NCBI RefSeq assembly: GCF_044704955.1
Contig: NC_092006.1
Location: 5,518,001-5,582,000 of the forward strand
Reading direction: 5' to 3'
Length of the DNA stretch: 64,000 nucleotides
Source: Pristiophorus japonicus
Lineage: Eukaryota
Shown here: one piece after another, positions 1 through 58,108 of the stretch
Numbering within the stretch: position 1 is the first letter of the stretch
Layout: each line of letters opens with the position of its first letter
The notes under the pieces: generated by a model
What the model saw: the letters and a program-made list of their open reading frames with translations, nothing else
The model's database searches: none
Told to the model about the DNA's origin: nothing
Program-made: the position numbers and the translations under genes

Positions 1-3000
1 CAGCGCCGGAAATTGGCTCAAGACCGCCTGAGACACGACAGCTGAGACAAGGTTGCGGGGGGGGGGGGGACACAAAAATAAAAAAAAACACAATATTAAC
101 AACAGGTTATAGGCCCCCGAGTCACCCTGGATACCGACACATCTCAAATTCCCCACCACTGGCGCGTCGGGAGCGCGTGTGGGACATTCCGCCGCGCTGC
201 GCACCGTTAAATTGCGCCTCTCCGCCCGCAATTCCCACAGGCGCACAGTCCGAGTCCGTTCGCTGTGAAATCCGCTCCAATCATTGGCGGGCACCATGGC
301 GACTGGCTGCAGTTAAGATTGCAAAATCCTTCTCCCAAACCGATTATGCTTCCCCCTGGTCTAACCCGGCTCTCCAATCCATCTCTCCAGGGGTTGGGGA
401 CCGGGGGGCGCTTGATTGTGTTAAAATGGGGCGATAGCTTTCTCACTAATTCCACTAGACAGGCCCCCCTCTCCCAACGGTAGACCCTCGCCTTCAAATA
501 CCGGAGTTCACTGACAACTTTATCTCAGTTAGGGGGCAGTTCAGTGTCACATTCGCTTCCACTCACCCATCACAATGTTCGGCTCCAAAGTCGCGCTATC
601 GGTATTGAGCGAAGCCCGCACACCTTTATACTTTGCCCAATATCTAATCTGCTTCTTAAAAAAATTATAGTTAAACGCAAACTTGTGTATCAGCGAACGA
701 TGCAACACAGGAGGCCATTCGGCCCATCAAACCTGTGTTGTGCCGGCTCTGTGACAGAGCGACTCAATCATTCCCACTCCGCCCCTGCTCTTTCCCCACA
801 GCCCGGCATATTGCCTCCTTTCCAAATATTTATCCAATTCCCCCGTTTGAAAGTCACTTTTTCATCTGCTCCCAGTGCCCCTTTCAGGCAGCGCGTTCCC
901 GAGCACAAGCTCTCAGGGCTTGAAATCACGTCCTGATCTCCCCCTCTGGTTCTGTTACCGATTATATTAAACATGTGTCCTCTGCTTACCCACCCTCCTC
1001 CCACTGGAAACAATCTCTCCTTCTTTACTCGATCGGAAGCCTTCTCCTTATTAATTCTATACAAAACCCTTCTCCTTATTAATTCTCTCCAAAACCCTTC
1101 TCCTTATTAATTCTCTCCAAAACCCGTCTAAAATCCAAAATCCAAAAGAGTAGGAGTAAACGGGTACTTTTCAGAATGGCAGGCAGTGACTAGTGGAGTG
1201 CCGCAAGGTTCTGTGCTGGGGCCCCAGCTGTTTACATTGTACATTAATGATTTAGACGAGGGGATTAAATGCAGTATCTCCAAATTTGCGGATGATACTA
1301 AGTTGGGTGGCAGTGTGAGCTGCGAGGAGGATGCTATTAGGCTGCAGAGTGACTTGGATAGGTTAGGTGAGTGGGCAAATGCATGGCAGATGAAGTATAA
1401 TGTGGATAAATGTGAGGTTATCCACTTTGGTGGTAAAAACAGAGAGACAGACTATTATCTGAATGGTGACAGATTAGGAAAAGGGAAGGTGCAACGAGAC
1501 CTGGGTGTCATGGTACATCAGTCATTGAAGGTTGGCATGCAGGTACAGCAGGCGGTTAAGAAAGCAAATGGCATGTTGGCCTTCATAGCGAGGGGATTTG
1601 AATACAGGGGCAGGGAGGTGTTGCTACAGTTGTACAGGGCCTTGGTGAGGCCACACCTGGAGTGTTGTGTACAGTTTTGGTCTCCTAACTTGAGGAAGGA
1701 CATTCTTGCTATTGAGGGAGTGCAGCGAAGGTTCACCAGACTGATTCCCGGGATGGCGGGACTGACCTATCAAGAAAGATTGGATCAACTGGGCTTGTAT
1801 TCACTGGAGTTCAGAAGAATGAGAGGGGACCTCATAGAAACGTTTAAAATTCTGACGGGTTTAGACAGGTTAGATGCAGAAAGAATGTTCCCAATGTTGG
1901 GGGAGTCCAGAACCAGGGGTCACAGTCTGAGGATAAGGGGTAAGCCATTTAGGACCGAGATGAGGAGAAACTTCTTCACCCAGAGAGTGGTGAACCTGTG
2001 GAATTCTCTACCACAGAAAGTAGTTGAGGCCAATTCACTAAATATATTCAAAAGGGAGTTAGATGAAGTCCTTACTACTCGGGGGATCAAGGGTTATGGC
2101 GAGAAAGCAGGAAGGGGGTACTGAAGTTTCATGTTCAGCCATGAACTCATTGAATGGCGGTGCAGGCTAGAAGGGCTGAATGGCCTGCTCCTGCACCTAT
2201 TTTCTATGTTTCTATGTTTCTATGTCTCCTTATTAATTCTCTCCAAAACCCTTCTCCTTATTAATTCGCTCCAAAACCCTTCTCCTTATTAATTCGCTCC
2301 AAAACCCTTCTCCTTATTAATTCTCTACAAAATCCTTCCCCTTATTAATTCGCTCCAAAACCCTTCTCCTTATTAATTCTAACCAAAACCCTTCTCCTTA
2401 TTAATTCTCTCCAAAACCCTTCTCCTTTTTAATTCGCTCCAAAACCCTTCTCCTTATTAATTCGCTCCAAAACCCTTCTCCTTATTAATTCTCTCCAAAA
2501 CCCTTTTCCTTATTAATTCGCTCCAAAACCCTTCTCCTTATTAATTCTAACCAAAACCCTTCTCCTTATTAATTCGCTCCAAAACCCTTCTCCTTATTAA
2601 TTCTAACCAAAACCCTTCTCCTTATTAATTATCTCCAAAATCGTTCTCCTTATTAATTCGCTCCAAAACCCTTCTCCTTATTAATTCTAACCAAAACCCT
2701 TCTCCTTATTAATTCTCTCCAAAACCCTTCTCCTTATTAATTCTATCCAAAACCCTTCTCATTATTAATTCACTCCAAAACCCTTCTCCTTATTAATTCT
2801 CTCCAAAATCCTTCTCATTATTAATTCTCTCCAAAACCCTTCTCATTATTAATTCTCTCCAAAACCCTTCTCCTTATTAATTCTATCCAAAATCCTCCTC
2901 CTTATTAATTCTCTCCAAAACCCTCCTCCTTATTAATTCTCTCCAAAACCCTTCTCCTTATTAATTCTATCCAAAACCCTTCTCCTTATTAATTCTATCC

Positions 3001-4318
3001 AAAACCCTCCTCCTTATTAATTCTCTCCAAAACCCTTCTCCTTATTAATTCTCTCCAAGACCCTTCTCCTTATTAATTCTCTCCAAGACCCTTCTCCTTA
3101 TTAATTCTCTCCAAAACCCTTCTCCTTATTAATTCTCTCCAAAACCCTTCTCCTTATTAATTCTATCCAAAACCCTTCTCCTTATTAATTCTCTCCAAAA
3201 CCCTTCTCCTTATTAATTCTCTCCAAAACCCTTCTCATTATTAATTCTCTCCAAAACCCTTCTCCTTATTAATTCTCTCCAAAACCCTTCTCCTTATTAA
3301 TTCGATCCAAAACCCTCCTCCTTATTAATTCTCTCCAAAACCCTTCTCCTTATTAATTCTCTCCAAGACCCTTCTCCTTATTAATTCTCTCCAAGACCCT
3401 TCTCCTTATTAATTCTCTCCAAAACCCTTCTCCTCATTAATTCTCTCCAAAACCCTTCTCCTTATTAATTCTATCCAAAACCCTTGTCCTTATTAATTCT
3501 CTCCAAAATCCTCCTCCTTATTAATTCTCTCCAAAACCCTTCTCATTATTAATTCTCTCCAAAACCCTTCTCCTTATTAATTCTCTCCAAAACCCTTATC
3601 CTTATTAATTCTATCTAAAATCCTCCTCCTTATTAATTCTCTCCAAAACCCTCCTCCTTATTAATTCTCTCCAAAACCCTTCTCCTTATTAATTCTCTCC
3701 AAAACCCTTCTCCTTATTAATTCTATCCAAAACCCTTCTCCTTATTAATTCTATTCAAAACCCTCCTCCTTATTAATTCTCTCCAAAACCCTTCTCCTTA
3801 TTAATTCTCTCCAAGACCCTTCTCCTTATTAATTCTCTCCAAGATCCTTCTCCTTATTAATTCTCTCCAAAACCCTTCTCCTTATTAATTCTATCCAAAA
3901 CCCTTCTCCTTATTAATTCTCTCCAAAACCCTTCTCCTTATTAATTCTATCCAAAAACCTTCCCATTATTAATTCTCTCCAAAACCCTTCTCCTTATTAA
4001 TTCTCTCCAAAACCCTTCTCCTTATTAATTCTATCCAAAACTCTTCTCCTTATTAATTCTATCCAAAACCCTTCTCCTTATTAATTCTCTCCAAAACCCT
4101 TCTCCTTATTAATTCTCTCCAAAACCCTTTTCCTTATTAATTCTCTCAAAAAACCTTCTCCTTATTAATTCTCTCCAAAACCCTTTTCCTTATTAATTCG
4201 CTCCAAAACCCTTCCCTTGGTTGACTCTCTCCTAACCCCTTCCTCACTCTGGCAAAACATCGAAGGCTATCTCACCTTGGAAGAGATGGAACAGCACACA
4301 GAGACCACAGAAGCTCAT
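1..4318 (-). CDS. 5' part of a paralogous VJ-C1 receptor gene: leader exon 4276-4318 and start of V exon at 41 (continues left of the window)
   Basis: Reverse complement of 11303-14326. The leader is identical except for one synonymous change (GGT/GGC). Splice sites are intact. Confidence 0.85.
1040..4215 (+). repeat. 28-bp minisatellite (AATTCTCTCCAAAACCCTTCTCCTTATT)n in intron 1 of the - paralog, interrupted by a CR1
   Basis: Direct tandem periodicity at 1040-1130 and 2225-4215. Confidence 0.95.
1145..2225 (+). mobile_element. 5'-truncated young CR1 LINE (C-terminal RT, 3'UTR, (TTTCTATG)n tail)
   Basis: ORF 1186-2124 with GVPQGSVLGP and FADD. Absent from the matching site in arm B. Confidence 0.93.
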
Positions 4319-5017
4319 TATCCCTGCCCCAGGAGGGTTGAACTCTGATGCTGGGACTGGCAGCTCAGGGAGGAATGCTTGTCAGCAGGTCGGTGCGAGG
4401 CTGGTGTGAAATGCCGAGCCAATTGTGGTAAGCACGCACTGTGTTTATTAATAAATGTACGATTTGGGCTGCAAAATAGTGCCGAAGCAGAAAGCTCTGT
4501 GTGGGTTTCCTGTTTTTACAGGTAAAGAGATGAAACACACACACACCATCTGTGTTACAGAAGGCACCTCGTCTCTACGCATGTTAGTTTGACCACACTT
4601 GGAGCACTGCGCACGGTTCTGGTCTCCATCTTTCAAAAGAATATAGAGGCACTGGAGCGGGTGTAAACAAGATTCAGAAAGATGACACCAGAACTGAGAG
4701 AGGTTATACTGATCAGGAAAGGCTGGACAGACTGGGGCACTTTTCTCCAGAAAATTACATAGTATGCACATCACAGAAACAGACCATTCAGCCCCACCGC
4801 TCCGTGCCGGGGTTTATGCTCCACACCAGCCCCTCCCACCTCTCTCCATCTCACCCCATTCGCCATATCCTTCTATTCCTTTCTCCCTCATGTGTTTATC
4901 CAGCCTCCCCTTAAATACATCGATACTATTCGCCTCAACCCCTCCCTATGGCAGCGAGTTCCACATCTCAGCACTCTCTGGGTCAAGAAGTTTCTCCTGA
5001 ATTCCCCATTGGGTTTA

Positions 5018-7070
5018 TAAGAACATAAGAAACAGGAGCAGGAGTAGGCCATTCGGCCCCTCGAGCCTGCTCTGTCATTTAGTACGATCATGGCTGATCT
5101 GATCATGGACTCAGCTCCACTTCCCTGCCCGCCCCCTTATTCCCTTATCGTTTAAGAAACTGTCTTAAATTTATTCAATGTCCCAGCTTCCACAGCTCTC
5201 TGAGGCAGCAAATTCCACAGATTTACAACCCTCTGAGAGAAGAAATTTCTCCTCATCTCAGTTTTAAATGGGCGGCCCCTTATTCTAAGACCATGCCCCC
5301 TAGTTCTAGTCTCTCCCATCAGTGAAAACATCCTCTCTGCATCCACCTTGTCAAGCCCCCTCATAATCTTATATGTTTCGATAAGATCACCTTTCATTCT
5401 TCTGAATTCCAATGAGTAGAGGCCCAACCTACTCAACCTTTCCTCATAAGTCAACCCCCTCATCCCCGGAATCAACTGAGTGAACCTTCTCTGAACTGCC
5501 TCCAAAGCAAGTATATCCTTTCGTAAATATGGAAACCAAAACTGCACGCAGTACTCCAGGTGTGGCCTCACCAATACCCTGTATAACTGTAGCAAGACTT
5601 CCCTGCTTTTATACTCCATCCCCTTTGCAATAAAGGCCAAGATTCCATTGGTCTTCCTGATCACTTGCTGTACCTGCATACTATCCTTTTGTGTTTCATG
5701 CACAAGTACCCCCAGGTCCCGCTGTACTGCAGCACTTTGCAATCTTTCTCCATTTAAATAATAACTTGCTCTTTGATTTTTTTCTGCCAAAGTGCATGAC
5801 TTCACACTTTCCAACATTTTGCTCCATCTGCCAAATTTTTGCCCACTCACTTAGCCTGTCTCTGTCCTTTTGCAGATTTTTTGTGTCCTCCTCACACATT
5901 GCTTTTCCTCCCATCTTTGTATCATCAGCAAACTTGGCTACGTTACACTCAGTCCCTTCTTCCAAGTCATCAATCTAGATTCCAAGTCGCCAATACAACA
6001 CTGATCCCTGCGGCACCCCCCCTAGATACAGATTGCCAATCTGAGAATGAACCATTTATCCCGACTCTCTGTTTTCTGTTTGTTAGCCAATCCTCTATCC
6101 ATGCTAATATATTGCCCCCAACCCCGTAAACTTTTATCTTGTGCAGTAACCTTTCATGTGGCACCTTGTCAAATGCCTTCTGGAAGTCCAAATACACCAC
6201 ATCCACTGGTTCCCCTTTATCCATCTTGTTCATTACATCCTAAAAGAATTCCAGCAAATTTGTCAAACATGACTTCCCCTTCATAAATCCATGCTGACTC
6301 TGCCTGACCCAATTTTGCTTTTCCAAATGTCCTGCTACTGCTTCTTTAATAATGCACTCCAACATTTTCCCAACCACAGATGTTAGGCTAACTGGTCTAT
6401 AGTTTCCTGCTTTTTGTCTGCCTCCTTTTTTAAATAGGGGCGTTACATTTGAAGTTTTCCAATCTGCTGGGACCTCTGCAGAATCCATTTATGAGTGACT
6501 GTCTTATATCGATGGCCCCCTCGTTCTGGTCTTCTCCCTCAAGTTGGAAGCATCTCTATTGTGAGGCAGAAGTGGATATGATCCATTCAGACTTCCCTAT
6601 AATGGTGGTGAGCACATATTTGAGGTATGGAGAACCCAGATGCAATGAAAATGGGTTAAGAATGTAAAAAAACACAAGATAAGGCCCGAGGACTGTGCAA
6701 GAAACAGACCTGGGAAACATAGACATAGAAACACAGAAAATAGGTGCAGGAGCAGGCCATTTGACCCTTCGAGCCTGCACCACCATTCAATATGATCATG
6801 GCTGATCATGCAACTTCAGTACCCCATTCCTGCTTTCTCTCCATACCCCCTTGATCCCTTTAGCCGTAAGGGCCACATCTAACTCCTTTTTGAATATATC
6901 CAACGAACTGGCCTCAACAACTTTCTGTGGTAGAGAATTCCACAGGTTCACAATTCTCTGAGTGAAGAAGTTTCTCCTCATCTCGGTCCTAAATGGCTTA
7001 TCCCTTATCCTTAGACTGTGACCCCTGGTTCTGGACTTCCCCAACATCGGGAATATTCTTCCTGCATCTA
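5018..7070 (-). mobile_element. CR1 LINE fragments (5018-6486; 6716-7070)
   Basis: RT ORF fragments (YLDFQKAFDKVPH, FADD) with CR1 tails. Confidence 0.88.
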
Positions 7071-7599
7071 GAATTGGCTTCGAAAAGGCGGATCCCAAAC
7101 AATAGTGAGAGTTAATAACTAACTTTACTGCATGCATTTCTGTTCGAACTATAAACGAGGTCAGGTGTAATCGAATAAACAGGGCTCGACGATTTCTGGA
7201 GACTGGGGCAAACCGGGTTCAACTGGGTGCTGTCTGTAATACACGTGTCTTAATTTCCAGAATTATCCAGATAACCAATTATTCACACGAGTGAATCTAG
7301 GTAAATAAGATTAACTCGCAGCACAACTCATTGCAAAATCCGTCGTCCCCTTTGAGGATTGATGGAACTTTATGTCAGAATATATGGGTTTAAAAAGAAC
7401 AAGTTATGCCAGAAAGCAGCAGTAAGGGTGTGTTACCAGCTATAATCCGCAAACTCTGTATAAAACGTTGAGGGGGCTTGGAACCAGAAAAGCCAGCGTG
7501 TTGCAGACAATGTGCTGTCCCAGTATGGAGATCTGTGCTCCAATTTATTCTGTCCCAGGCCTCAAAACAGCAAATGTGCGGTTTGGTCACTCCTGGGAA

Positions 7600-7915
7600 T
7601 CGCCACTTCTATCATCGCGGCATCCCCACCGACACCTGGGAGTCCCTGTGGCCAAAGACCAGTGGAGGAAGTGCATCCGGGAGAGCGCTGAGCACCTCGA
7701 GTCTGGTCGCCGAGAGCGTGCAGAAACCAAGCGCAGGCAGCGGAAGGAGCGTGCGGCAAACCTGTCCCACCCTCCCCTTACCCTCAACCACTGTCTGTCC
7801 CACCCGTGACAGGGGACTGTGGCTCTCGTATTGGACTGTTCGGCCACCGAAGGACTCATGCTAAGAGTGGAAGCGAGTCTTCCTCGATTCCGAGGGTCTG
7901 CCGACGATGATGATT
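7600..7915 (+). mobile_element. 3' end of an RTE-clade LINE
   Basis: GIPTDTWESL / WRKCIRESAEHLE..KRRQRKER C-terminus and a (GAT)n tail. Confidence 0.6.
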
Positions 7916-8805
7916 ATATTGTAGGACAGCTCTGTCTTCTACGTCAATGTGTATGCGCGTCGTGCACAACGGTTGATTCACATCCGAATCATTGAAAGAT
8001 TTGTTTGCCAGTGATATCAAGGGCTTTTATTTTGCACTGGAAGTTGAGAATAAATGGACCTGAAACGGGAAGTTCTACTGACAGCACTGCGGTATAGCGC
8101 CGGCTAGCGATGAAATTGATGTTGTGCAACCCCCCCGCAAAGGCCAGTTATCGCACTCAGTACCCCAGGGTGAGAGGTTCCTTGGGTATTTGACGATCCG
8201 GACATTTCTTTGGCCAGTACCGCGCGGACCCACTAATTCAAGAGGACTGGCGGGTCAGTGCTCAGTTGAAATCTGATAACCCCCACACAACAGAGAAATG
8301 CAGTTCATTGCAGGGGTCCCGCAAATAACCCATCTTTTAGCACCAGGAGGAGGCCATTCAGCCCCTCGAGCCTGCGGTTCCATTCAGTTAGCTCATGGGC
8401 TGATCTGTATCTTAACCCCATCCACCTGCCTTGGTCCCGTAACCCTGAATACCCTTACCCAACAAATAGCTATCCATCTTAGTTTTGACATTTTACAATT
8501 GCCCCCTCGCGCCCCCCCCCAGCCTCGACAGCTTTCTGAGGGAGAGAGTTCCACATTGCCACTACCCTTTGTGTGAAGAAGGGCTTCCTGACATCAACCC
8601 TCAATGGCCTGGCTCTAATTTTAAGGTGACATCCCCTTGTTCTGGACTCCCCCCACCAAGAGGCCATAGTTTCTCTCAATCTACCCCCTCAACTCCTTCA
8701 ATCATCTTAAATACTTCAAATAGATCATTCCTTGATCTTCTATATTCAAGAGAATTCAAGCCTCGTCCATGCAAACGGTCCTCACAATTGAACTCTTTCC
8801 CATAG

Positions 8806-9455
8806 TGTCAGCTGTGGTTGTGGGTAGCACACTCGTCTCAGAGTCAGAAGGTCATCGGTTCAAGTCCCACTCCAGGAACTTGAGCATATAAATCCAGGAT
8901 GGCACTCCCAGTGCAGTGCTGAGGGAGCGCCGCACTGTCGGAGGGGCGGTGCTGAGGGAGCGCCGCACTGTCGGAGGGGCGGTGCTGAGGGAGCGCCGCA
9001 CTGTCGGAGGGGCGGTGCTGAGGGAGCGCCGCACTGTCGGAGGGGCAGTGCTGAGGGCGCGCCGCACTGTCGGAGGGTCCGTACTGAGGGAGTGCCGCAT
9101 TGTCATAGGGACGATACTGAGGGAGCGCCGCACTGTCGGAGGTGCTGTCTTTCAGATGAGACATTTAAACCGAGGCCCTGTCTGCCCTCTCAAGTGGATG
9201 TAAAAGATCCCATGGCACTATTTCGAAGAAGAGTAGGGGAGTTATCTCTGGTTCTTGGCCAATATTTATCCCTCAATCTACAAAGCAGATGATCTGGGTC
9301 ATTATCACATTGCTGTGTGTGGGAGCTTGCTGTGCGCAAATTCAGCTGCCGCGTTTCTCACATTACAACAGTAACTATACTCCAAAAGTACTTCATTGCT
9401 GTAAAGCGCAGTTTGAGACATCCAGTGGTCATGAAAGGCGCTCTATAACTGCAAT
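8806..9455 (+). mobile_element. tRNA-derived DeuSINE (SacSINE1-like) with an internal 33-bp tandem expansion
   Basis: tRNA-like head with B box GGTTCAAGTCC, Deu-like core GATGTAAAAGATCCCATGGCACTATTT..GGCCAATATTTATCCCTCAA, tail AAAGGCGCTCTATAA. Confidence 0.75.
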
Positions 9456-10311
9456 GGTTTTCTTCTTTCTAGCCCCTGCATAATGTATCTGTTTAAGTCT
9501 CAAATGAGGTACTGTATACTGGGATTACTCCAACCCCGGTAGATTTCTCTATTTGAACTAACCGGAACTACGCGTGAGTTGGATAAAATTTACCAAAGAT
9601 ATTTGATAGCATTCCATTGCTACCACAAGTCACACACCACCTCGGGATTTCCGGATCTGCTTTACAGCCAACGGAGCAACATTTTCAAGTGTGGTCACTG
9701 GTGCAATGTCGGGACACGCGGCCAATTTCCGCACAGCAAGCTCCCACAAACTCACGCTTACCAAAAGAAAATCACTAAACTGGCTGTAAAGCGCGTTGGG
9801 ACGTCCTGATGTCGTGAAAGGCACTATATAAATTCCCTAAATTAAGAAGTGTGGGTTATAGACAGGCCCCAGTCTCTAGAACTTGTCGGTCCCTGTTTAC
9901 CGATTACACCTAGTTCGAACAGAAATGCACACAGTAAAGTTAGTTATTTATTCTCAATATTGTTTCCGATCCTCCTTTTCTAAGAGGAGCCAATTCTAGT
10001 TCTCGGGTCTGTTTCTTGCACAGTCCTCGGGCCTTATCTTGTGTGTTTTTACATTCTTAACACGTCTACATTACATCTGACTTCTCCATACCTCAAATAT
10101 GTGCTCACCCCCCACCCCGTTATAGAGAAGGCTGTATGGATCCTATCCACTACCGTCTCACAATAGAGATGTTTCCACTTGTGGGAGAGCCTAGATCTAG
10201 GGGGCCATCACTATACGACAGTCACCCATAAATCCAATGGGGAATTCAGGAGAAACTTCATCACCCAGAAAATGGGGAGAATGTGGAACTCGCTGCCAAA
10301 GGGAGGGGTTG

Positions 10312-10683
10312 AAACATAGAATCATAGAAAATAGGTGCAGGAACAGGCCATTCGGCCCTTTGAACCTGCACCACCATTCAATATGATCATGGCTGATCAT
10401 GCAACTTCAGTACCCCATTCCTGCTTTCTCTCCATACCCCCTTGATCCCTTCAGCCGTAAGGACCACATCTAACTCCCTTTTGAATATATCCAACGAACT
10501 GGCCTCAACAACTCTCTGCAGGAGAGACTTCCACAGGTTCACAATTCTCTGAGTGAAGATGTTTCTCCTCATCTCGGTCCTAGATGGCTTACCCCTTATC
10601 CTGAGAGTGTGACCCCTGGTTCTGGACTTCCCCAACATCGGGAACATTCTTCCTGCATCTACCCGGTCCAATCCCGGCAGAAT
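10312..10683 (-). mobile_element. CR1 3' fragment, specific to arm B
   Basis: ORF 10387-10707 is a CR1 C-terminus inserted into an older CR1 shared by both arms. Confidence 0.85.
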
Positions 10684-11099
10684 CTGAGGCGAATAGTATC
10701 GATGCATTTAAGGGGAGGCTGGATCAACACATGAGGGAGAAAGGAATAGAAGGATATGGGGATGGGGTGAGATGGAGAGTGGTGGGAGGGGCTGGTGTGG
10801 AGCATAAACCCCGGCACGGAGCGGTGGGGCTGAATGATCTGTTTCTGTGATGTACATTCTCTCTAATTTTCGAGAGAAAAGTGCCCCAGTCTGTTGAGCC
10901 TTTCCTGATCAGTATAACCTCTCTCAATTCTGGTGTCATCTTTCTGAATCTTGTTTACACCCGCTCCAGTGCCTCTATATTCTTTTGAAAGATGGAGACC
11001 AGAACCGTGCGCAGTGCTCCAAGTGTGGTCAAACTAACATGCGTAGAGACGAGGTGCCTTCTGTAACACAGATGGTGTGTGTGTGTTTTATCTCTTTAC

Positions 11100-11302
11100 C
11101 TGTAAAAACAGGAAACCCACACAGAGCTTTCTGCCTTGGCACTATTTTGCAGCCCAAATCGTACATTTATTAATAAACACAGTGCGTGCTTACCACAATT
11201 GGCTCGGCATTTCACACCAGCCTCGCACCGACCTGCTGACAAGCATTCCTCCCTGAGCTGCCAGTCCCAGCATCAGAGTTCAACCCTCCTGGGGCAGTGA
11301 TA
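11100..11302 (+). promoter_or_regulatory. Putative proximal promoter of the receptor gene (mirrored at ~4320-4520)
   Basis: ETS-like CAGGAAAC (~11110), AT-rich TATTAATAAA (~11168), RUNX-like ACCACA (~11192) and ATTGG, just upstream of the ATG. Motif matches only. Confidence 0.35.
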
Positions 11303-14300
11303 ATGAGCTTCTGTGGCCTCTGTGTGCTGTTCCATCTCTTCCAAGGTGAGATAGCCTTCGATGTTTTGCCAGAGTGGGGAAGGGGTTAGGAGAGAGTCAA
11401 CCAAGGGAAGGGTTTTGGAGCGAATTAATAAGGAAAAGGGTTTTGGAGAGAATTAATAAGGTGAAGGGTTTTGGAGGGAATTAATAAGGAGAAGGGTTTT
11501 GGATAGAATTAATGAGGAGAAGGGTTTTGGAGAGAATTAAAAAGGAGAAGGGTTTTGGAGGGAATTAATAAGGAGAAGGGTTTTGGAGAGAATTAAAAAG
11601 GAGAAGGGTTTTGGAGGGAATTAATAAGGAGAAGGGTTTTGGATAGAATTAATAAGGAGAAGGGTTTTGGAGAGAATTAAAAAGGAGAAGGGTTTTGGAG
11701 GGAATTAATAAGGAGAAGGGTTTTGGATAGAATTAATGAGGAGAAGGGTTTTGGAGAGAATTAATAAGGAGAAGGGTTTTGGATACAATTAATCAGGAGA
11801 AGGGTTTTGGATAGATTTAATAATGAGAAGGGTTTTGGATAGAATTAATAAGGAGAAGGGTTTTGGAGAGAATTAATAAGGAGAAGAGTTTGGATAGATT
11901 TAATAATGAGAAAGGTTTTGGATAGAATTAATAAGGAGAAGGGTTTTGGAGAGAATTAATAAGGAGAAGGGTTTTGGAGAGAATTAATAACGAGAAGGGT
12001 TTTGGAGAGAATTAATAAGGAGAAGGGTTTTGAATAGATTTAATAATGAGAAGGGTTTTGGATAGAATTAATAATGAGAAGGGTTTTGGATAGAATTAAT
12101 AATGAGAAGAGTTTGGATAGATTTAATAATGAGAAAGGTTTTGGATAGAATTAATAAGGAGAAGGGTTTTGGAGAGAATTAATAAGGAGAAGGGTTTTGG
12201 ATACAATTAATAAGGAGAAGGGTTTTGGATACAATTAATAAGGAGAAGGGTTTTGGATAGAATTAATAAGGAGACGAGTTTGGATAGATTTAATAATGAG
12301 AAAGGTTTTGGATAGAATTAATAAGGAGAAGGGTTTTGGATACAATTAATAAGGAGAAGGGTTTTGGATAGATTTAATAATGAGAAGGGTTTTGGATAGA
12401 ATTAATAAGGAGAAGGGTTTTGGAGAGAATTAATAAGGAGAAGGGTTTTGGAGAGAATTAATAAGGAGAAGGGTTTTGAATAGATTTAATAATGAGAAGG
12501 GTTTTGGATAGAATTAATAAGGAGAAGGGTTTTGGATAGAATTAATAAGGAGAAGGGTTTTGGAGAGAATTAATAAGGAGAAGGGTTTTGGATAGAATTA
12601 ATCAGGAGAAGGTTTTGGAGAGAATTAATAAGGAGAAGGGTTTTGGAGAGAATTAATGAGGGGAAGGTTTTGGAGAGAGTTAATAAGGAGGAGGGTTTTG
12701 GAAAGCATTAATAAGGAGAAGGGATTTGGAGAGAATTAATAAGGAGAAGGGTTTTGGATAGAATTAATAATGAGAAGGTGTTTTGGATAGAATTAATAAT
12801 GAGAACGGTTTTGGATAGAATTAATAAGGAGAAGGGTTTTGGAGAGAATTAATAAGGAGAAGGGTTTTGGATAGATTTAATAATGAGAAGGGTTTTGGAT
12901 AGAATTAATAATGAGAAGGGTTTTGGAGAGAATTAATAAGGAGAAGGTGTTTTGGATAGAATTAATAATGAGAACGGTTTTGGATAGAATTAATAAGGAG
13001 AAGGGTTTTGGAAAGAATTAATAAGGAGAAGGGTTTTGGAGAGAATTAATAATGAGAACGGTTTTGGATAGAATTAATAATGAGAAGGGTTTTGGATAGA
13101 ATTAATAAGGAGAAGGATTTTGGAAAGAATTAATAAGGAGAAGGGTTTTGGATAGATTTAATAAGGAGAAGGGTTTTGGATAGATTTAATAAGGAGAAGG
13201 GTTTTGGATAGAATTAATAATGAGAAGGGTTTTGGATAGAATTAATAAGGAGACGGGTTTTGGATAGAATTAATAAGGAGAAGGTTTCCGATCGAGTAAA
13301 GAAGGAGAGATTGTTTCCAGTGGGAGGAGGGTGGGTAAGCAGAGGACACATGTTTGAGATAATCGGTAACAGAACCAGAGGGGGAGTTCAGGACGTGATT
13401 TCAAGCCCTGGGAGCTTGTGCTCGGGAACGCGCTGCCTGAAAGGGGCACTGGGAGCAGATGAAAAAGTGACTTTCAAACGGGGGAATTGGATAAATATTT
13501 GGAAAGGAGGCAATATGCCGGGCTGTGGGGAAAGAGCAGGGGCGGAGTGGGAATGATTGAGTCGCTCTGTCACAGAGCCGGCACAACACAGGTTTGATGG
13601 GCCGAATGGCCTCCTGTGTTGCATCGTTCGATGATACACAAGTTTGCGTTTAACTATAATTTTTTTAAGAAGCAGCTTAGATATTGGGCAAAGTATAAAG
13701 GTGTGCGGGCTTCGCTCAATACCGATCGCGCGACTTTGGAGCCGAACATTGTGATGGGTGAGTGGAAGCGAATGTGACACTGAACTGCCCCCTAACTGAG
13801 ATAAAGATGTCAGTGAACTCCGGTATTTGAAGGCGAGGGTCTGCCGTTGGGAGAGGGGGGCCTGTCTAGTGGAATTAGTGAGAAAGCTATCGCCCCATTT
13901 TAACATAATCAAGCGCCCCCCGGTCCCCAACCCCTGGAGAGATGGATTGGAGAGCCGGGTTAGACCAGGGGGAAGCATAATCGGTTTGGGAGAAGGCTTT
14001 TGCAATCTTAACTGCAGCCAGTCGCCATGGTGCTCGCCAATGATTGGAGCGGATTTCACAGCGAACGGACTCGGACTGTGCGCCTGTGGGAATTGCGGGC
14101 GGAGAGGCGCAATTTAACGGTGCGCAGCACGGCGGAATTTCCCACACGCGCTCCCGACGCGCCAGTGGAGGGGAATTTGAGATGTGTCGGTATCCAGGGT
14201 GACTCGGGGGCCTATAACCTGTTGTTAATATTGTGTTTTTTTTATTTTTGTGTCCCGCCCCCCCCCCCCCGCAACCTTGTCTCAGCTGTCGTGTCTCAGG

Positions 14301-17300
14301 CGGTCTTGAGCCAATTTCCGGCGCTGCTAACGGCCGATGTCGGGAGCCTGGTCAAACTGCAATGCCAGACCGGGAGGCTGGCCCCAAGCATCGTTTACTG
14401 GTACACACACTGGCACCGAGAGGGCATGCGGCTCGTTTACAAAACCGGACGGTTCGTGACGCCCGGGGGAAGATTTTCCGGCGAGGTATGCAAGCAATCA
14501 GGGAATTATTCGCTGGTCATTGACAACGTCCAGAGGAACGATTCTGGGCGGTATTACTGCGCTGCTCCAAACGTCGGGAATCGGTCCCTGATATTCGGGA
14601 CTGGCACCACGCTGGTGATCACAGGTAATCCCACACGCCCATCCAATTGTGCGTCGAGACACCAATTCAAACCTGCCTTGTGCGCCTGGTTAATTCCAAT
14701 TTCCCTTCCATCTAGCGGGCCCCCCGGTCCTCTTCCTCTTAACGCCGCCGCCGGCTGAGATTCCCCGGCTGGAGAGGGTGCCCTTGATGTGTCTGGTACG
14801 GGGCGTTGCTCCCGACTCCTTCCCCATCCGCTGGCTGGTTGCGGGACGGGCCGCCGAGGGATGGAGCGAGCCCGGGACGCTGGAGCCGGACGGGAGCTAT
14901 ACCGCCAGAAGCGTCCTGAGCGTTTCGGCCGAAACCTGGCGCAGCGGCGCCGTCTGCACTTGCACCGTTCCGATCAACGCCACCGGGGATCTCCTGAGTG
15001 AAAGCGTCGCGTCTCCGGGAGGTAACTGGAGCTACTGGCGGTTTGCCAAATAGTTAGTGATAATAATGTTCATTATAGTATTGCTGGGATGTGAGGGGTT
15101 TTTTTGCACGAGAGATTGTGTAGAATGGGCCTATGTTCTCTGGAGTTTCGTATAAGATTATGAGGGGGCTTGACAAGCTGGATGCAGAGAGGATGTTTCC
15201 ACTGATGGGGGAGACTAGAACTAGGGGGCATAATCTCAGAATAAGGGGCCGCCCATTTAAAACTGAGATGAGGAGGAATTTCTTCTCTGAGGGTTGTAAA
15301 TCTGTGGAATTCGCTGCCTCAGAGAGCTGTGGAAGCCGGGACATTGAGTAAATTTACGATAGAAATAGACAGTTTCTTAACTGATAAGTAACTAAGGGGT
15401 TATGGGGAGCGGGCAGGGAAGTGGAGCTGAGTCCATGATCGGATCAGCCATGATCGTATTGAATGGCGGAGCAGGCTCGAGGGGCCGAATGGCCGACTCC
15501 TGCTCCTATTTCTTATGTTCTTATGGAGTTTCGAAGAAGGAGAGGTGATCTCATTGAAACGTACAAGACTCTGAGGGGGATTGACAGGGTGGATGCAGGG
15601 AGGGTGTTTCCCCCCGGGGCTGGGGAGTCTAGAACCAGGGGTCACACAGTCTCAGGGTAAGGGGTTGGCCATTTAAGACTAAGATGAGGAGAACGTTCTT
15701 CACTTGCGATTTACTACGTTACAGGCGCTATATAAATATAAGTTGTTGTATATTGGGAGCACTAGTATGGAAAAGTAGTATTTTATAAATGACATGAGTT
15801 TGGAAAACAGCGAGACAGAGAGAGACCATATACACAAACCTGTAAATGTGGGAAGGGCAGGTTGGCGAGCTGGTTAAACTGGCTTACGGGGTACTTGAAT
15901 TTATATAAGGAGATATTAGAACAGTTGACCAAAAGCTTGGTCAAAGAGGGAGGTTTTACAGAAGGAGGAGAGGCGGAGAGGTTTAGGGAGAGAGTTCCAG
16001 AGCTTGGGGCCCCAGGCAGCTGAAGGCACGGCCACCAATGGTGGAGCGATAGAAATCGGGGGGAATGCTCAAGAGGCCAGGATTGGAAGAGCGCAGAGAT
16101 CACAGCCACTTACGTTGAGACAGTTCATAGTTCGTCACCATGCCTTTGATGATTCGGGCCAAAAACCAGCTTCAAACCCTCAGCGGACGAGGTTTCAGAA
16201 TTTGACTGAATTATTTTGTGTTTCGCTCATTTCACAAGAGTTGTCTTTCTGCCGTTCAGAGCCCCTTCACAGCTCGACCTGCCGCTTCGCGCTTTATGCC
16301 AGCCTGGCGATGGCTCCTCTTGTGATGGGGTTGATCGGTGTCGCGGTGGCACGGCGTGGCAAGACTCGCCAACCAGGTACTGCCCGTCTGAGCCAAACCC
16401 TCAATTTCGCCTTTAGCTGAACCTCTCCCTTTGGCGTGCCGGCCTGGACATTAACGCCAGTCATCTTCTTAAACCTAGAGAGTGCAGCCACGACTGACCG
16501 AGGTACCGCTTCAAGAATAAAGAAAGCAGAAGAGGAGGTAGGTGCCACAAAGATGGGAGATGTTATTTTCATTAAAGAGCGGGGAGCGGGACTAATTGGA
16601 TCATACTTTCAAAGAGCCGACACAAGCTCGAAGGGCCAACTAGCCTCCTTCTGTGCTGTAAGATTCTATACTGGTGTCAAGTGTTTCATTGGTGTCCATG
16701 GACATGTCCGTTGTCAGTAACTTCAATGAGACATTCACATTAATACATTTGTGCCTCTCTCAGAAACAACCCAAAGCTATTCACCTGCAATGAATTGCAT
16801 AAGAACATAAGAATTAGGAACAGGAGTAGGCCATCTAGCCCCTCAAGCCTGCTCCACCATTCAACAAGACCATGGCTGATCTGGCCGTGGACTCAGCTCC
16901 ACTTACCCGCCCGCTCCCCGTAACCCTTAATTCCCTTATTGCTTAAAAATCTATCTATCTGTGACTTGAATGCATTCAATGAGCTAGCCTCAACTGCTTC
17001 CTTGGGCAGAGAATTCCACAGATTCACAACCCTCTGGGAGAAGAAATTCCTTCTCAACTCGGTTTTAAATTGGCTCCCCTGTATTTTGAGGCTGTGCCCC
17101 CTAGTTCTAGTCTCCCCGACCAGTGGAAACAACCTCTCTGCCTCTATCTTGTCTATCCCTTTCATTATTTTAAATGTTTCTAGAAGATCACCCCTCATCC
17201 TTCTGAACTCCAACGAGTAAAGACCCAGTCTACTCAATCTATCATCATAAGGTAACCCCCTCATCTCCGGAATCAGCCTCGTGAATCGTCTCTGTACCCC

Positions 17301-18908
17301 TCCAAAGCCAGTATATCCTTCCTTAAGTAAGGTGACCAAAACTGCACGCAGTACTCCAGGTGCGGCCTCACCAATACCCTATACAGTTGCAGAAGGACCT
17401 CCCTGCTTTTGTACTCCATCCCTCTCGCAATGAAGGCCAACATTCCATTCGCCTTCCTGATTACCTACTGCACCTGCAAACTAACTTTTTGGGATTCATG
17501 CACAAGGACCCCCAGGTCCCTCTGCACCGCAGCATGTTGTAATTTCTCCCCATTCAAATAATATTCCCTTTTACTGTTTTTTTTCCCAAGGTGGATGACC
17601 TCACACTTTCCGACATTGTATTCCATCTGCCAAACCTTAGCCCATTCGCTTAACCTATCTAAATCTCTTTGCAACAGTGATGTCTTGCATTTAAATAGCG
17701 CCTTTGATGTCCTAAGGCGCTTCACAGGAGCATTAGTCAGACAAAAATTAAAGGCCGAACCCCACGAGGAGAGATTACGACAGGTGAGCAAAGGCTTGGC
17801 CGAGGAGGGAGGTTTTAAGGAGGAGAGAGGGGCGGAGAGGTTTATGGAGGGAGTTCCAGAGCTTGGGACCCAGGCAGCTGAAGGCACGGCCACCGATGGT
17901 GGAGCGATTATAATCAGGGATGGTCAAGAGGGCAGAATTGGAGGAGCAGTAGGAGATAGGGAGGGATGTAGGTGCTGGAGGAGAGTACAGACATAAAGAG
18001 GGGTGTATGGGCTGGAGGAGGTTACAGAGATAGGAGGGGTGTAGGGGCTGGAGGAGGTTACAGAGATAGGGAGGGGTGTAAAGTCTAGAGGAGATTACAG
18101 AGATAGAGAGGGGTGTAGGGGCTGGAGCAGGTTACAGAGATAGAGAGGGGTGTAGGGCTGGAGGAGGTTACAGAGATAGGGAGGGTATAGGGGTTGGAAC
18201 AGGTTACAGAGATAGGGAGGGGTGTAGGGGTTGGAGGGGGTTACAAAGATAGGGAGGGGTGTAGGGGTTGGAGGGGGTTACAGAGATAGGGAGGGGTGTA
18301 GGGGCTAAAGGAGGTCACAGAGATAGGGAGGGATGTAGGGGCTGGAGGAGGTTACAGAGTTAGGGAGGGATGTAGAGGCTGGAGGAGGTTGCAGAGATAT
18401 GGAGGGGTGTAGGACTGGAGGAGAGGCAGTACTGAGGGAGCGCCGCACTGTCGGAGGAGCAGTACTGAGGGAACACCGCACTGTCGGAGGGACCGTCTTT
18501 CGGCTGAGACGTTAAACCGAGGCACCATCTGCCCTCTCGGTTGTAAAAGATCCCGGGGCCACTGTTGGAAGAAGAGCAGGGGGAGTTCTCCCCGGTGTCC
18601 TGGGGCCAATATTTATCCCTCAACCAACATCACTAAAAACAGATGATCCGGGTCATTATCACATCGCTGTGTGTGGGAGCTTGCTGTGCGCAAATTGAGC
18701 TGCCGCGTTTCCCACAATACAACAGTGACTGCACTTCAAAAAGTACTTCATTGGCTGTAAGGCGCTTTGGGACGACCGGTGGTGGTGAAGGGCGCTATAG
18801 AAATGCACGTCTATTTCCTTTCAATATAGTTGAGCAGGAAGGTAACGGTTTTCTCGTGTTGTTCCTTCACAGACTATGTACGCGCACCTGGCATTCGCTG
18901 TGGATTAG
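11303..18908 (+). CDS. Non-rearranging VJ-C1 Ig-superfamily transmembrane receptor, 6 exons (11303-11345, 14286-14624, 14716-15021, 16260-16376, 16479-16537, 18873-18908), 299 aa
   Basis: All introns are GT..AG with compatible phases (1,1,1,1,0), and the exons sum to 900 nt. Leader MSFCGLCVLFHLFQAVVS. V domain LQC..VYWY..DSGRYYC with FGTGTTLVIT. C1 domain PVLFLLTP..LMCLV..IRW..DGSYTARSVLSV..W..CTCTV. TM FALYASLAMAPLVMGLIGVAVA. Tail ends EEETMYAHLAFAVD*. AATAAA at 19105. Confidence 0.85.
11405..13285 (-). repeat. 28-bp minisatellite, inverted counterpart in intron 1 of the + gene
   Basis: (AATAAGGAGAAGGGTTTTGGAGAGAATT)n. Confidence 0.95.
14286..14624 (+). CDS. Exon 2: V-set domain with germline-joined J-like G strand
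   Basis: Acceptor ttgtctcag and donor ACAG|gtaatc. Canonical Cys/Trp/DxGxYYC plus FGxGT in one exon, with no RSS or intervening DNA. Confidence 0.92.
14716..15021 (+). CDS. Exon 3: C1-set Ig constant domain
   Basis: Acceptor ttccatctag after a 91-bp intron, donor GGAG|gtaact. C1 signature residues as in Ig/TCR/MHC constant domains. Confidence 0.9.
16260..16537 (+). CDS. Exons 4-5: connecting peptide/TM (16260-16376) and first cytoplasmic exon (16479-16537)
   Basis: Exon 4 reads EPLHSSTCRFALYASLAMAPLVMGLIGVAVARRGKTRQP. A 102-bp GT-AG intron follows, then ESAATTDRGTASRIKKAEEE|gtaggt. Confidence 0.75.
16798..17672 (-). mobile_element. CR1 fragment in the last intron of the receptor gene
   Basis: CR1 ORF2 C-terminal ORFs and tail. 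Confidence 0.88.
17950..18425 (+). repeat. ~37-bp minisatellite (GTTACAGAGATAGGGAGGGGTGTAGGGGCTGGAGGAG)n adjoining an L2-like fragment
   Basis: Tandem periodicity visible directly. Confidence 0.85.
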
Positions 18909-19110
18909 ACCGCATCGTGAGAGCGGGAAGGGTTTGCCGGATCGGAAGAGTTGGGGCCTTGAGAAATACAGCGCCCACTCGCCGCGCCCTCAGTCACAAC
19001 CTGTGCACGGTGACCATTCACTCCAATGTCCCCGAACTCCCAGTGTGACTTTCCTCTGCCGGTAGTTTTGATCAATCTTTGATTCTTGTCTTTATTAGCG
19101 TTGCAATAAA
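18873..19110 (+). CDS. Terminal exon: TMYAHLAFAVD* (ITSM/ITIM-like) plus 3'UTR to the poly(A) signal
   Basis: Strong acceptor ttctcgtgttgttccttcacag; phase 0 matches exon 5. Stop at 18906-18908, AATAAA at 19105-19110. Confidence 0.7.
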
Positions 19111-19945: not shown

Positions 19946-22806
19946 AGAGGACAGATGTGCAAATAGATGTTAACAAATATGATGTGATTGGGATTACGGA
20001 GACGTGGCTCCACTATGATCAGGGCTGGGAACTCAACATCCAGGGGTATTCAACATTCAGGAAAGATAGAATAAAAGGAAAAGGAGGTGGGGTAGCATTG
20101 CTGGTTAAGGAGCAAATTAAGGCAATAGTTCGGAAGGACATTAGCTTAGATGATGTGGAATCTATATGGGTAGAGCTGCAGGATACCAAAGGGCAAAAAA
20201 CGTTAGTGGGAGTTGTGTACAGACCTCCAAACAGTAGTAGTGATGTTGGGGAGGGCATCAAACATGAAATTAGGGGTGCGTGCAATAAAGGTGCAGCAGT
20301 TATAATGGGTGACTTTAATATGCACATAGATTGGGTTAACCAAACTGGAAGCAATACGGTGGAGGAGGATTTCCTGGAGTGCATAAGGGATGGTTTTTTA
20401 GACCAATATGTCGAGGAACCAACTAGGGGGGAGGCCATCTTAGACTGGGTGTTGTGTAATGAGAGAGGATTAATTAGCAATCTCGTTGTGCGAGGCCCCT
20501 TGGGGAAGAGTGACCATAATATGGTGGAATTCTGCATTAGGATGGAGAATGAAACAGTTAATTCAGAGACCATGGTCCAGAACTTAAAGAAGGCTAACTT
20601 TGAAGGTATGAGGCGTGAATTGGCTAGGATAGATTGGCGAATGATAATGAAGGGGTTGACTGTGGATGTGCAATGGCAGACATTTAGAGACCGCATGGAT
20701 GAACTACAACAATTGTACATTCCTGTCTGGCGTAAAAATAAAAAAGGGAAGGTGGCTCAACCGTGGCTATCAAGGGAAATCAGGGATAGCATTAAAGCCA
20801 AGGAAGTGGCATACAAATTGGCCAGAAATAGCAGCGAACCCAGGGACTGGGAGAAATTTAGAACTCAGCAGAGGAGAACAAAGGGTTTGATTAGGGCAGG
20901 GAAAATGGAGTACGAAAAGAAGCTTGCAGGGAACATTAAGACGGATTGCAAAAGTTTCTATAGATATGTAAAGAGAAAAAGGTTAGTAAAGACAAACGTA
21001 GGTCCCCTGCAGTCAGAATCAGGGGAAGTCATAACGGGGAACAAAGAAATGGCGGACCAATTGAACAAGTACTTTGGTTCGGTATTCACTGAGGAGGACA
21101 CAAACAACCTTCCGGATATAAAAGGGGTCGGGGGGTCTATTAAGGAGGAGGAACTGAGGGAAATCCTTATTAGTCGGGAAACTGTGTTGGGGAAATTGAT
21201 GGGATTGAAGGCCGATAAATCCCCAGGGCCTGATGGACTGCATCCCAGAGTACTTAAGGAGGTGGCCTTGAAAATAGTGGATGCATTGACAGTCATTTTC
21301 CAACATTCCATTGACTCTGGATCAGTTCCTATGGAGTGGAGGGTAGCCAATGTAACCCCACTTTTAAAAAAAGGAGGGAGAGAGAAAACAGGGAATTATA
21401 GACCGGTCTGCCTGACATCGGTAGTGGGTAAAATGATGGAATCAATTATTAAGAATGTCATAGCAGCGCATTTGGAAAGAGGTAATATGATAGGTCCAAG
21501 TCAGCATGGATTTGTGAAAGGGAAATCATGCTTGACAAATCTTCTGGAATTTTTTGAGGATGTTTCCAGTAGAGTGGACAAGGGAGAACCAGTTGATATG
21601 GTATATTTGGACTTTCAGAAGGCTTTCGACAAGGTCCCACACAAGAGATTAATGTGCAAAGTTAAAGCACATGGGATTGGGGGTAGTGTGCTGACATGAA
21701 TTGAGAACTGGTTGTCAGACAGGAAGCAAAGAGTAGGAGTAAATGGGGACTTTTCAGAATGGCAGGCAGTGACTAGTGGGGTACCGCAAGGTTCTGTGCT
21801 GGGGCCCCAGCTGTTTACACTGTACATTAATGATTTAGACGAGGGGATTAAATGTAGTATCTCCAAATTTGCGGATGACACTAAGTTGGGTGGCAGTGTG
21901 AGCTGTGAGGAGGATGCTATGAGGCTGCAGAGCGACTTGGATAGGTTAGGTGAGTGGGCACATGCATGGCAGATGAAGTATAATGTGGATAAATGTGAGG
22001 TTATCCACTTTGGTGGTAAAAACAGAGAGACAGACTATTATCTGAATGGTGACAGATTAGGAAAAGGGGAGGTGCAAAGAGACCTGGGTGTCATGGTACA
22101 TCAGTCATTGAAGGTTGGCATGCAGGTACAGCAGGCGGTTAAGAAAGCAAATGGCATGTTGGCCTTCATAGCGAGGGGATTTGAGTACAGGGGCAGGGAG
22201 GTGTTGCTACAATTGTACAGGGCCTTGGTGAGGCCACACCTGAAGTATTGTGTACAGTTTTGGTCTCCTAACCTGAGGAAGGACATTCTTGCTATTGAGG
22301 GAGTGCAGCGAAGGTTCACCAGACTGATTCCCGGGATGGCGGGACTGACCTATCAAGAAAGACTGGATCAACTGGGCTTGTATTCACTGGAGTTCAGAAG
22401 AATGAGAGGGGACCTCATAGAAACGTTTAAAATTCTGACGGGGTTAGACAGGTTAGATGCAGGAAGAATGTTCCCAATGTTGGGGAAGTCCAGAACCAGG
22501 GGACACAGTCTAAGGATAAGGGGGAAGCCATTTAGGACCGAGATGAGGAGGAATTTCTTCACCCAGAGAGTGGTGAACCTGTGGAATTCTCTACCACAGA
22601 AAGTTGTTGAGGCCAATTCACTAAATATATTCAAAAAGGAGTTGGATGAAGTCCTTACTACTAGGGGAATCAAGGGGTATGGTGAGAAAGCAGGAATGGG
22701 GTACTGAAGTTGCATGTTCAGCCATGAACTCATTGAATGGCGGTGCAGGCTAGAAGGGCCGAATGGCCTACTCCTGCACCTATTTTCTATGTTTCTATGT
22801 TTCTAT
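19946..22806 (+). mobile_element. Young CR1 LINE with near-complete ORF2 (APE endonuclease + RT) and one in-frame stop at 21697
   Basis: ORFs 19957-21699 and 21712-22707 are in the same frame, with ITETW, GDFN, SDHN and FADD motifs. Nested in an older - strand CR1 (19282-19945, 22807-22900). Confidence 0.95.
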
Positions 22807-22959
22807 GATTAGGAGACCAAAACTGAACACAATATTCCAGGTGTGGCCTCACCAAGGCCCTGTACATCCCGGGAATCAGTCTGGTGAACCTTCGCTGCAC
22901 ACCCCCAGCGGAATTTACAGCTATTTTCGTTGTATCTATAAACCAGTGACCCCTGCTTA

Positions 22960-36600: not shown

Positions 36601-37692
36601 GGTGAGTGGGCAAATGCGTGGCAGATGAAGTATAATGTGGATAAATGTGAGGTTATCCACTTTGGTGGTAAAAACAGAGAGACAGACTATTATCTGAATG
36701 GTGACAGATTAGGAAAAGGGAAGGTGCAACGAGACCTGGGTGTCATGGTACATCAGTCATTGAAGGTTGGCATGCAGGTACAGCAGGCGATTAAGAAAGC
36801 AAATGGCATGTTGGCCTTCATAGCGAGGGGATTTGAGTACAGGGGCAGGGAGGTGTTGCTACAGTTGTACAGGGCCTTGGTGAGGCCACACCTGGAGTAT
36901 TGTGTACAGTTTTGGTCTCCTAACTTGAGGAAGGACATTCTTGCTATTGAGGGAGTGCAGCGAAGATTCACCAGACTGATTCCCGGGATGGTGGGACTGA
37001 CCTATCAAGAAAGACTGGATCAACTGGGCTTGTATTCACTGGAGTTCAGAAGAGTGAGAGGGGACCTCATAGAAACGTTTAAAATTCTGACGGGTTTGGA
37101 CAGGTTGGATGCAGGAAGAATGTTCCCAATGTTGGGGAAGTCCAGAACCAGGGGTCACAGTCTAAGGATAAGGGGAAAGCCATTTAGGACCGAGATAAGG
37201 AGAAACTTCTTCACCCAGAGAGTGGTGAACCTGTGGAATTCTCTACCACAGGAAGTAGTTGAGGCCAATTCACTAAATATATTCAAAAGGGAGTTAGATG
37301 AAGTCCTTACTACTCGGGGGATCAAGGGTTATGGCGTGAAAGCAGGAAGGGGGTACTGAAGTTTCATGTTCAGCCATGAACTCATTGAATGGCGGTGCAG
37401 GCTAGAAGGGCTGAATGGCCTGCTCCTGCACCTATTTTCTATGTTTCTATGTTTCTATCTTTCTATGTTTCTATCTGTCCCTGCATAGTTTCTTTCTGTT
37501 CACAGTCTGATAAGCAGAATAAAAGGAGACTCCCTTTTAATACCAGATGGTCATTTAATTGCATCTCTAAGTTTCAAGGCTAAAAAAGCGTGGCTATTTT
37601 TCTAGTCCTATTATTTCTTTAAGCATAGCAAAAACAGAATTTAACCCTTCCCTTTTCCATAAGCCATAGATTCATAGATTCTTTCTTCCACA
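33680..37692 (-). repeat. 3' LTR (33680-33925 + ~37476-37692), interrupted by a CR1
   Basis: The two halves join to match the 5' LTR. Polypurine tract AAGGAGGGAAT on - at 37693-37703. Confidence 0.93.
33926..37475 (+). mobile_element. Young CR1 LINE (C-terminal ORF1 esterase + ORF2 with a single stop at 35626) inserted in the ERV 3' LTR
   Basis: ORF1 HIGTND (SGNH esterase-like). ORF2 pieces 34219-35628 and 35701-37359 are in frame. TCTATC is shared at both junctions. Confidence 0.95.
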
Positions 37693-57900: not shown

Positions 57901-58108
57901 CTTGTCTCGTCCTTCTGAAAGAATTCGCTGTAAATTGCCGTTGAAAGGCACGCGGAGGGAATCACGTCGAGCAAACATTTACTGACGAGCACCAGTTAAG
58001 TATCAAGTCTCACCTGCTTTGCCGCTGCCATGATGCCAAAGTGGAGGATAAGGATCAATACTAGAGCCAGGATCCCCGGGACAGTCATTGCACCAGGCAC
58101 GCACCACC
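56690..58108 (-). pseudogene. Probable TM exon (58014-58108) and CR1-interrupted cytoplasmic exon (57914..56801) of another membrane receptor gene
   Basis: tctgtctctgtag|GG TGG TGC.. reads WCVPGAMTVPGILALVLILILHFGIMAAAKQ|gtgag. A 99-bp intron leads to ttctttcag|AAGGACGAG, and the exon resumes after the CR1 and ends AAG|gtgagt. Confidence 0.5.

Follow-up and report, generated by a model that had tools for sequence, protein, structure and literature searches.

In a 64,000-nt stretch of DNA from the shark Pristiophorus japonicus (the window, G000:C32:4958392-5022391, in which position x is C32:4958391+x), two receptor genes, g1 on the right and g2 on the left, lie head to head in an inverted repeat. 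Each would encode a membrane receptor whose variable and joining segments are already fused in one exon (VJ) and are followed by a C1-set domain, a transmembrane (TM) segment, and a tyrosine-bearing tail. We favor, at a probability of about 0.7, the reading that neither gene rearranges, that g2 joins a g1-type promoter-to-C1 part to the tail of a third gene, g3, the likely mechanism being gene conversion from one inverted arm to the other, and that both products are inhibitory. The pair belongs to a four-gene cassette, g4(+) g3(-) g2(-) g1(+), that spans 106-121 kb a unit and is present 12 times over 1.3 Mb, with seven distinct units.

The sequence-only reading of this stretch had placed an inverted twin of the receptor gene about 7 kb away, and the twin is there: the two leader-exon ATGs, at 4318 on the minus strand and 11303 on the plus strand, diverge and are separated by 6,985 bp of window sequence. 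Positions 4246-4937 pair with 10685-11375 (promoter and leader, 97.1% identity over 692 bp), and 1-1129 pair with 13195-14326 (the 3' portion of intron 1 together with the V start, 97.6% over 1133 bp, E=0). The duplication, traced earlier over promoter, leader, intron 1, and the V start, continues to the left of the window for 702 bp at 96.4% across V and C1, with 7 nt of the intron beyond the C1 donor still included; no unique g1-g2 match was found beyond those 702 bp. Position 14326, previously taken as a V boundary, is the end of the second arm match, and the V exon itself starts at 14286. The "large palindrome" is real but of modest size, totaling ~15.7 kb with arms of 4.3 and 5.6 kb (~2 kb of that minisatellite) around a 5.7-kb spacer. 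Within the spacer, older arm remnants sit beside the 97% arms (4935-5018/10228-10312 at 89%, 6487-6716/10000-10233 at 84%, and 7068-7209/9866-9999 at 78%), and the unpaired core (7210-9865, 2.66 kb) is 61% repeat. Because the arms diverge by 1.5-3.6%, carry insertions specific to one arm (e.g., 1145-2223), and recur in the same inverted layout in all seven distinct units, each bearing its own substitutions, the palindrome is no fold-back artifact, a danger raised earlier. The parts of the pair are as follows.

1 to 41, minus strand: start of the g2 VJ exon; the rest lies outside the window (V is C32:4958094-4958432)
C32:4957697-4958002, minus strand: g2 C1 exon
C32:4955168-4955274, minus strand: g2 TM exon, 107 nt
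From C32:4952537, minus strand: g2 terminal exon
1145 to 2223, plus strand: repeat fragment that we take to be of long interspersed nuclear element (LINE) type, in the left arm of this unit only, splitting the minisatellite; 96-98% identical to copies at 21728-22807 and 36380-37458
2225 to 4242, no strand: 28-bp minisatellite, 72 copies, in g2 intron 1
4276 to 4318, minus strand: g2 leader exon, 43 nt, with ATG at 4318 and a GT donor
4319 to 4937, minus strand: g2 proximal promoter copy, ETS-like core at 4503-4514
4938 to 10684, no strand: spacer with older inverted-arm remnants and the unpaired core
10685 to 11302, plus strand: g1 proximal promoter copy, ETS-like core at 11107-11118
11303 to 11345, plus strand: g1 leader exon, 43 nt
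11403 to 13284, no strand: 28-bp minisatellite, 67 copies, in g1 intron 1, mirroring 2225-4242
14286 to 14624, plus strand: g1 single-exon VJ (YYC...FGTGTTLVI), 339 nt; Pfam V-set, 4e-12
14716 to 15021, plus strand: g1 C1-set exon; Pfam C1-set, 1e-9; homology to g2 stops at ~15028
16260 to 16376, plus strand: g1 TM exon, 117 nt, with juxtamembrane Cys237 and an uncharged TM
16479 to 16537, plus strand: g1 cytoplasmic spacer exon, 59 nt, without a g2 counterpart
18873 to 18908, plus strand: g1 terminal coding exon with the TMYAHL motif; AATAAA at 19105-19110

The six exons of g1, all with AG/GT sites, encode 299 amino acids (aa): leader, VJ, C1, a Cys237 stalk with an uncharged TM, the 59-nt exon, and the TMYAHL tail. 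V and J share one 339-nt exon ending in FGTGTTLVI, C1-set is the sole family match of the C1 exon in Pfam, and this single C1 exon leads directly to the TM. No site resembling what we take to be the recombination signal sequence (RSS) consensus was found across the 108 kb scanned. The public P. japonicus model P0003 (299 aa) is identical to g1 of units 2 and 6 and is labeled "immunoglobulin kappa light chain-like"; a rearranging immunoglobulin (Ig) light chain or T cell receptor (TCR) gene, as in this automatic label, does not fit the joined VJ, the zero count of RSS-like sites, and the inhibitory-type tail. The g1 frame is open in all seven distinct units, where its TM and 59-nt exons are 100% identical; V and C1 stand at ~98% and nearby introns at 99.3-99.7%. 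A contig from sequencing run X2 abuts V (14284-14622) and C1 (14714-15019) with the intron gone, and unique depth in that run falls on exons only, the TM and 59-nt exons included, so that the contig is likely a spliced g1-type transcript from a run whose kind is not on record. Run X1 (share 0.05) covered repeats only, and none of the listed runs with a match is recorded as RNA. Of 970 candidate C1-set hits, 150 were scored, and none of these lies on C32.

When the V, C1, TM, and tail exons left of the window were compared, as the sequence-only reading had proposed, g2 fell into two parts. Its identity to g1 is 97.7% in the leader, 97.1% in V, and 96.4% in C1; to g3 it is only 62.8%, 58.8%, and 74.4% over these exons. 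Past C1 the similarity reverses: across the terminal exon ±60 nt, g2 matches g3 at 82.6% vs g1 at 64.0%, and the start of the intron after C1 is common to g2 and g3. The left copy does not lack downstream exons, an outcome named earlier as a refutation: each of the seven distinct units carries 3' exons that belong to g2. Its TM exon is 107 nt long in 7/7 units vs 117 + 59 nt in g1 and g3, and both totals give phase 0. A 59-nt exon was sought in g2 as well, but the best local match fell within a repeat, and no unit gave a blastn hit. Judged by these identities, g2 reads as a chimera of a g1-type promoter-to-C1 part and a g3-type 3' half, and it likely shares the ligand of g1 while having a shorter tail.

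Variation among the units fits conversion between the arms. Fixed differences between the seven g1 and seven g2 copies number 12 in the promoter region, two in the intron, and none in V or C1, while polymorphisms common to both sets number eight, six, seven, and two (promoter region, intron, V, and C1). One intron variant is private to both g1 and g2 of unit 3, and g2 of unit 12 bears a g1-type leader and C1. On this reading, a g3-type gene would once have stood head to head with g1, until conversion between the inverted arms replaced its 5' half; conversion would have continued in patches, and unequal crossing-over would next have multiplied the 106-121-kb cassette.

Several observations weigh against this history or against a working g2. 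Identity between g1 and g2 of the same unit exceeds that across units by only 0.03-0.2 points (V, 97.3 vs 97.1%); therefore, most homogenization would predate amplification, with patchy exchange since. Gene models of horn shark and Mustelus join a g1-type V with a g3-type tail, so this pairing of parts could be an old one and not a recent product. TM exon identities are too alike to tell the parents apart (g2-g3 70.8%, g2-g1 68.0%, g1-g3 69.2%), the TM/tail tree is a quick one with weak support, and the TM-to-terminal splice of g2, which leaves TLYAQL in frame on direct joining, is a prediction. Three of the seven g2 copies are damaged (U1 and U5 carry stops, and U6 has lost 30 nt of C1) vs none of the seven g1 copies, and no AATAAA occurs in g2 before a repeat that starts ~250 nt into the terminal exon.

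The last two points also favor the rival that survives best, namely that g2 is a decaying partial duplicate in which an inverted copy of the g1 5' half was placed on an old 3' remnant of g3 type, so that g2 has no selected function and only g1, g3, and g4 matter. The loss of the spacer exon points the same way, as do the variable stop after the motif (a tail of 14 aa in four units and 83-87 aa in three) and the TM variants of g2, five nonsynonymous and none synonymous. However, in four of the seven units g2 has a fully open frame and AG/GT sites, the TM exon, by being 10 nt shorter, exactly restores the motif frame (a one-in-three chance), and g3 likewise has stops in two of seven units (U3 and U5), its frame being open in the other five. 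We consider decay unlikely. The g2 gene does appear to be under weaker constraint. At 97% likeness, run X2 gave no cover of g2-specific exons; contigs show presence and not absence, so this was not used as evidence.

Far less probable is a classical receptor pair of the Siglec-11/16 kind, in which g2 would be activating or a decoy. The geometry is that of SIGLEC11/16, which lie head to head ~9 kb apart with ectodomains homogenized by conversion (excerpted text of PMC5701461), and the g2 Tyr lies just ~8 residues from the membrane, with an Asn in the g2 TM. The earlier suggestion of a paired-receptor set holds insofar as the ectodomain is shared (96-97% DNA identity) and the tails differ, but no activating member was found. 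A charged TM residue or loss of the Tyr motif was to be looked for in the left copy, and neither was seen: TLYAQL is retained in the predicted frame, and the 20-residue hydrophobic stretch of g2 has no K/R/D/E in 7/7 copies, with Asn in all and His in one. Among relatives, a charged TM residue was seen in 2 of the 39 with a TM call, one of them a miscalled C1 segment. Because g2 keeps TLYAQL in its predicted splice form and its hydrophobic stretch lacks K/R/D/E, both genes would be of inhibitory type, and the activating half of a classical pair appears to be missing.

The whole array was located with a V-C1 query, which placed 24 close and 12 more distant copies between 4.73 and 5.99 Mb of C32; of the 36 candidates scored, none lay elsewhere. 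A 560,056-bp block repeats at +559,609 (C32:4784154-5344209 and 5343763-5903818), without a mismatch over the 360,056 bases compared (200 kb lay outside the comparison) and no N at the junction. Because identity is complete, microsatellites included, we propose that this repeat is likely a false duplication in the assembly, inflating seven units to 12, rather than a very recent true one. That the palindrome or the entire array is an assembly artifact is hardly credible: the exact block and the close likeness of the distinct units (98.3-99.8% in spacer), some of which may be alleles placed in tandem, speak for it, but the divergent arms, their private insertions, and the 3' exons that g2 keeps in every distinct unit speak against it, and an artifact is likely for only 5 of the 12 units.

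The remaining gene, g4 (e.g., C32:4926120-4934377), is a B-type paralog with a longer tail, a TFYASL motif, and a frame open in 7/7 units; Arg lies near the start of its TM stretch in five of seven copies. Its V holds 21 nonsynonymous and no synonymous variants in the seven units (P=0.003 by a simple count, ~0.025 after eight tests), many of them near loops resembling complementarity-determining regions 1 and 3. Diversifying selection was not seen in V of g1, g2, or g3 or in any C1 (P>0.6 in seven of the eight tests).

One further g4-related feature lies in the window.

57899 to 58092, minus strand: orphan g4-like TM exon and the start of the next small exon, inverted; 73-74% identity

It recurs at seven other places examined and is probably what remains of another inverted duplicate. 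A fifth gene had been suspected here, but no V or C1 was found for this TM remnant. The window also holds two 2.85-kb direct copies of a LINE-type element (19956-22806 and 34608-37458, 95.7% identical) and a self-inverted 1.3-kb repeat (49995-51334, 87%).

As to regulation, g1 and g2 may share central regulatory DNA, as the sequence-only reading suggested; each has its own duplicated ~620-bp proximal promoter with a core that we take to be ETS-like. Such a core also lies upstream of g3, where its local score of 47 compares with 40 for the top of 200 shuffles. The tail motifs TMYAHL (g1), TLYAQL (g2), and TFYASL (g4) share the form TxYxxL, and all four genes encode a juxtamembrane Cys; Cys237 is kept in at least 90% of 53 aligned relatives. 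Given this conserved Cys, the chains may pair as disulfide-linked dimers, the heterodimer suggested earlier among them. A complex prediction for two g1 ectodomains (P0003 17-240), run without an alignment, scored 0.19 vs a mark of 0.32 and is evidence neither way. Ligand binding would then lead to tail phosphorylation, and SHP-type phosphatases (SHP-1/2) recruited by TxYxxL would dampen leukocyte activation, a signaling step carried over from the established biology of immunoreceptor tyrosine-based inhibitory and switch motifs (ITIM/ITSM).

The family extends well beyond this species. Relatives in sharks, rays, and skates number 46 among the matches listed, and others occur in sturgeon, paddlefish, bichir, coelacanth, lungfish, caecilian, frog, turtles, crocodilians, lizards, and birds, although no bird relative has a Pfam C1-set match. 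Of 45 relatives examined, 35 have a J-like FGxG, 39 a TM by hydropathy, and 35 a TM together with YxxL/V/I. In V trees, drawn with no Ig/TCR outgroup and with long bony-vertebrate branches, the g1/g2-, g3-, and g4-type lineages are separate and each spans sharks and rays. Public databases name these elasmobranch genes only by automatic labels (Ig light or heavy chain-like), the name PRARP is absent from the 116 matches listed, and one lizard relative's model is labeled APH-1A. The architecture and range of the family appear to fit those of PRARP. To the left, the array is flanked by exons of P450, SCAMP, an RERG-like Ras, PEX11, and a dermatopontin-like gene, and to the right by PAQR-type exons and a 394-aa relaxin-3 receptor frame (scan of 290 of 402 candidate open frames). 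These neighbors, together with the APH-1A label of the lizard model, may correspond to the human 1q21-24 paralogon, where we also take PRARP to lie. A fragment of a long terminal repeat-type integrase/reverse transcriptase was seen in the left flank (L120). We found no description of this shark family in the literature covered, which did not extend to supplements or key J Immunol papers, so that absence from print is not shown.

Two models from other species stand apart. The Heterodontus model P0018 has an Arg in its TM and a short tail without a Tyr motif, and it may be an activating receptor of the family in a second shark or else an incomplete gene model. In Pristis, P0009 (XP_051901910) is adjacent by number to XP_051901911, which appears as IgL sigma-2 in the methods excerpt of PMC12227049. 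As a lead only, this neighbor would be a rearranging light chain at a linked position or else a family member so labeled.

The features of the locus are of known kinds, a germline VJ-C1 receptor of inhibitory type and an inverted pair under conversion, and the head-to-head palindrome is itself a known mechanism; the amplified four-gene cassette is the most interesting element. It would mean a germline family of immune "brake" receptors in sharks, a membrane-bound inhibitory-type branch across elasmobranchs that evolves like innate receptor clusters, with tail/ectodomain shuffling, conversion, cassette amplification, and pseudogene alleles. It also provides candidates for shark natural killer-type inhibitory receptors and testable chain pairings. 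More speculatively, and with doubt outweighing belief, the locus may be a polymorphic, copy-number-variable germline complex in which A-type (g1, g2, and g3) and B-type (g4) chains pair combinatorially, g4 V is under diversifying selection, and the set is the shark counterpart of KIR/NITR inhibitory receptors. If true, it would offer a living model of the role of the antigen-receptor precursor before RAG.

Among known systems, NITR has an I-type second domain, SIRP has two C1 domains, and NKp30 has none. The shark genes resemble these receptors in their germline VJ domain, inhibitory motif, and multigene expansion but have one C1-set domain. An excerpt of PMC11599192 groups NITR, SIRP, and NKp30 with PRARP as joined-VJ members of the Ig superfamily. 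SIGLEC11 and SIGLEC16, in the excerpt of PMC5701461, are head to head less than 10 kb apart, with homogenized ectodomain exons, differing tails, and nonfunctional alleles. The g1/g2 pair shares all of this, including damaged copies, but its ectodomain is unrelated, and both shark genes keep a Tyr motif of inhibitory type whereas Siglec-16 is described there as activating. The shark genes UrIg and UrIg2 have 3 and 9-11 C domains, are linked to the major histocompatibility complex or an Ig heavy chain/TCR locus, and are expressed mostly in liver and gill (excerpt of PMC12227049). As far as that account goes, they share with g1 and g2 a non-rearranging VJ with C1 domains, a split leader, and conversion among exons, but g1 has one C1, a TM, a Tyr tail, and other neighbors.

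The PRARP/VJC1 genes, reportedly described by Fu (2019) and Ohta (2019), are said to have a single-exon VJ, a C1, a juxtamembrane Cys, and an ITIM/ITSM-like tail. The shark genes likewise have a single-exon VJ without an RSS-like site, one C1-set domain, and a TM with an ITIM/ITSM-like tail, and they fall into two subtypes, g1/g2/g3-like and g4-like. PRARP is mentioned briefly in excerpts of PMC10751288 and PMC11599192, the latter giving the ITSM consensus as TxYxxV/I, where the shark motifs have TxYxxL. Set beside the chicken PRARP genes, by description only, the locus differs in belonging to a cartilaginous fish, in the amplification of a four-gene cassette at least sevenfold, and in its chimeric inverted twin.

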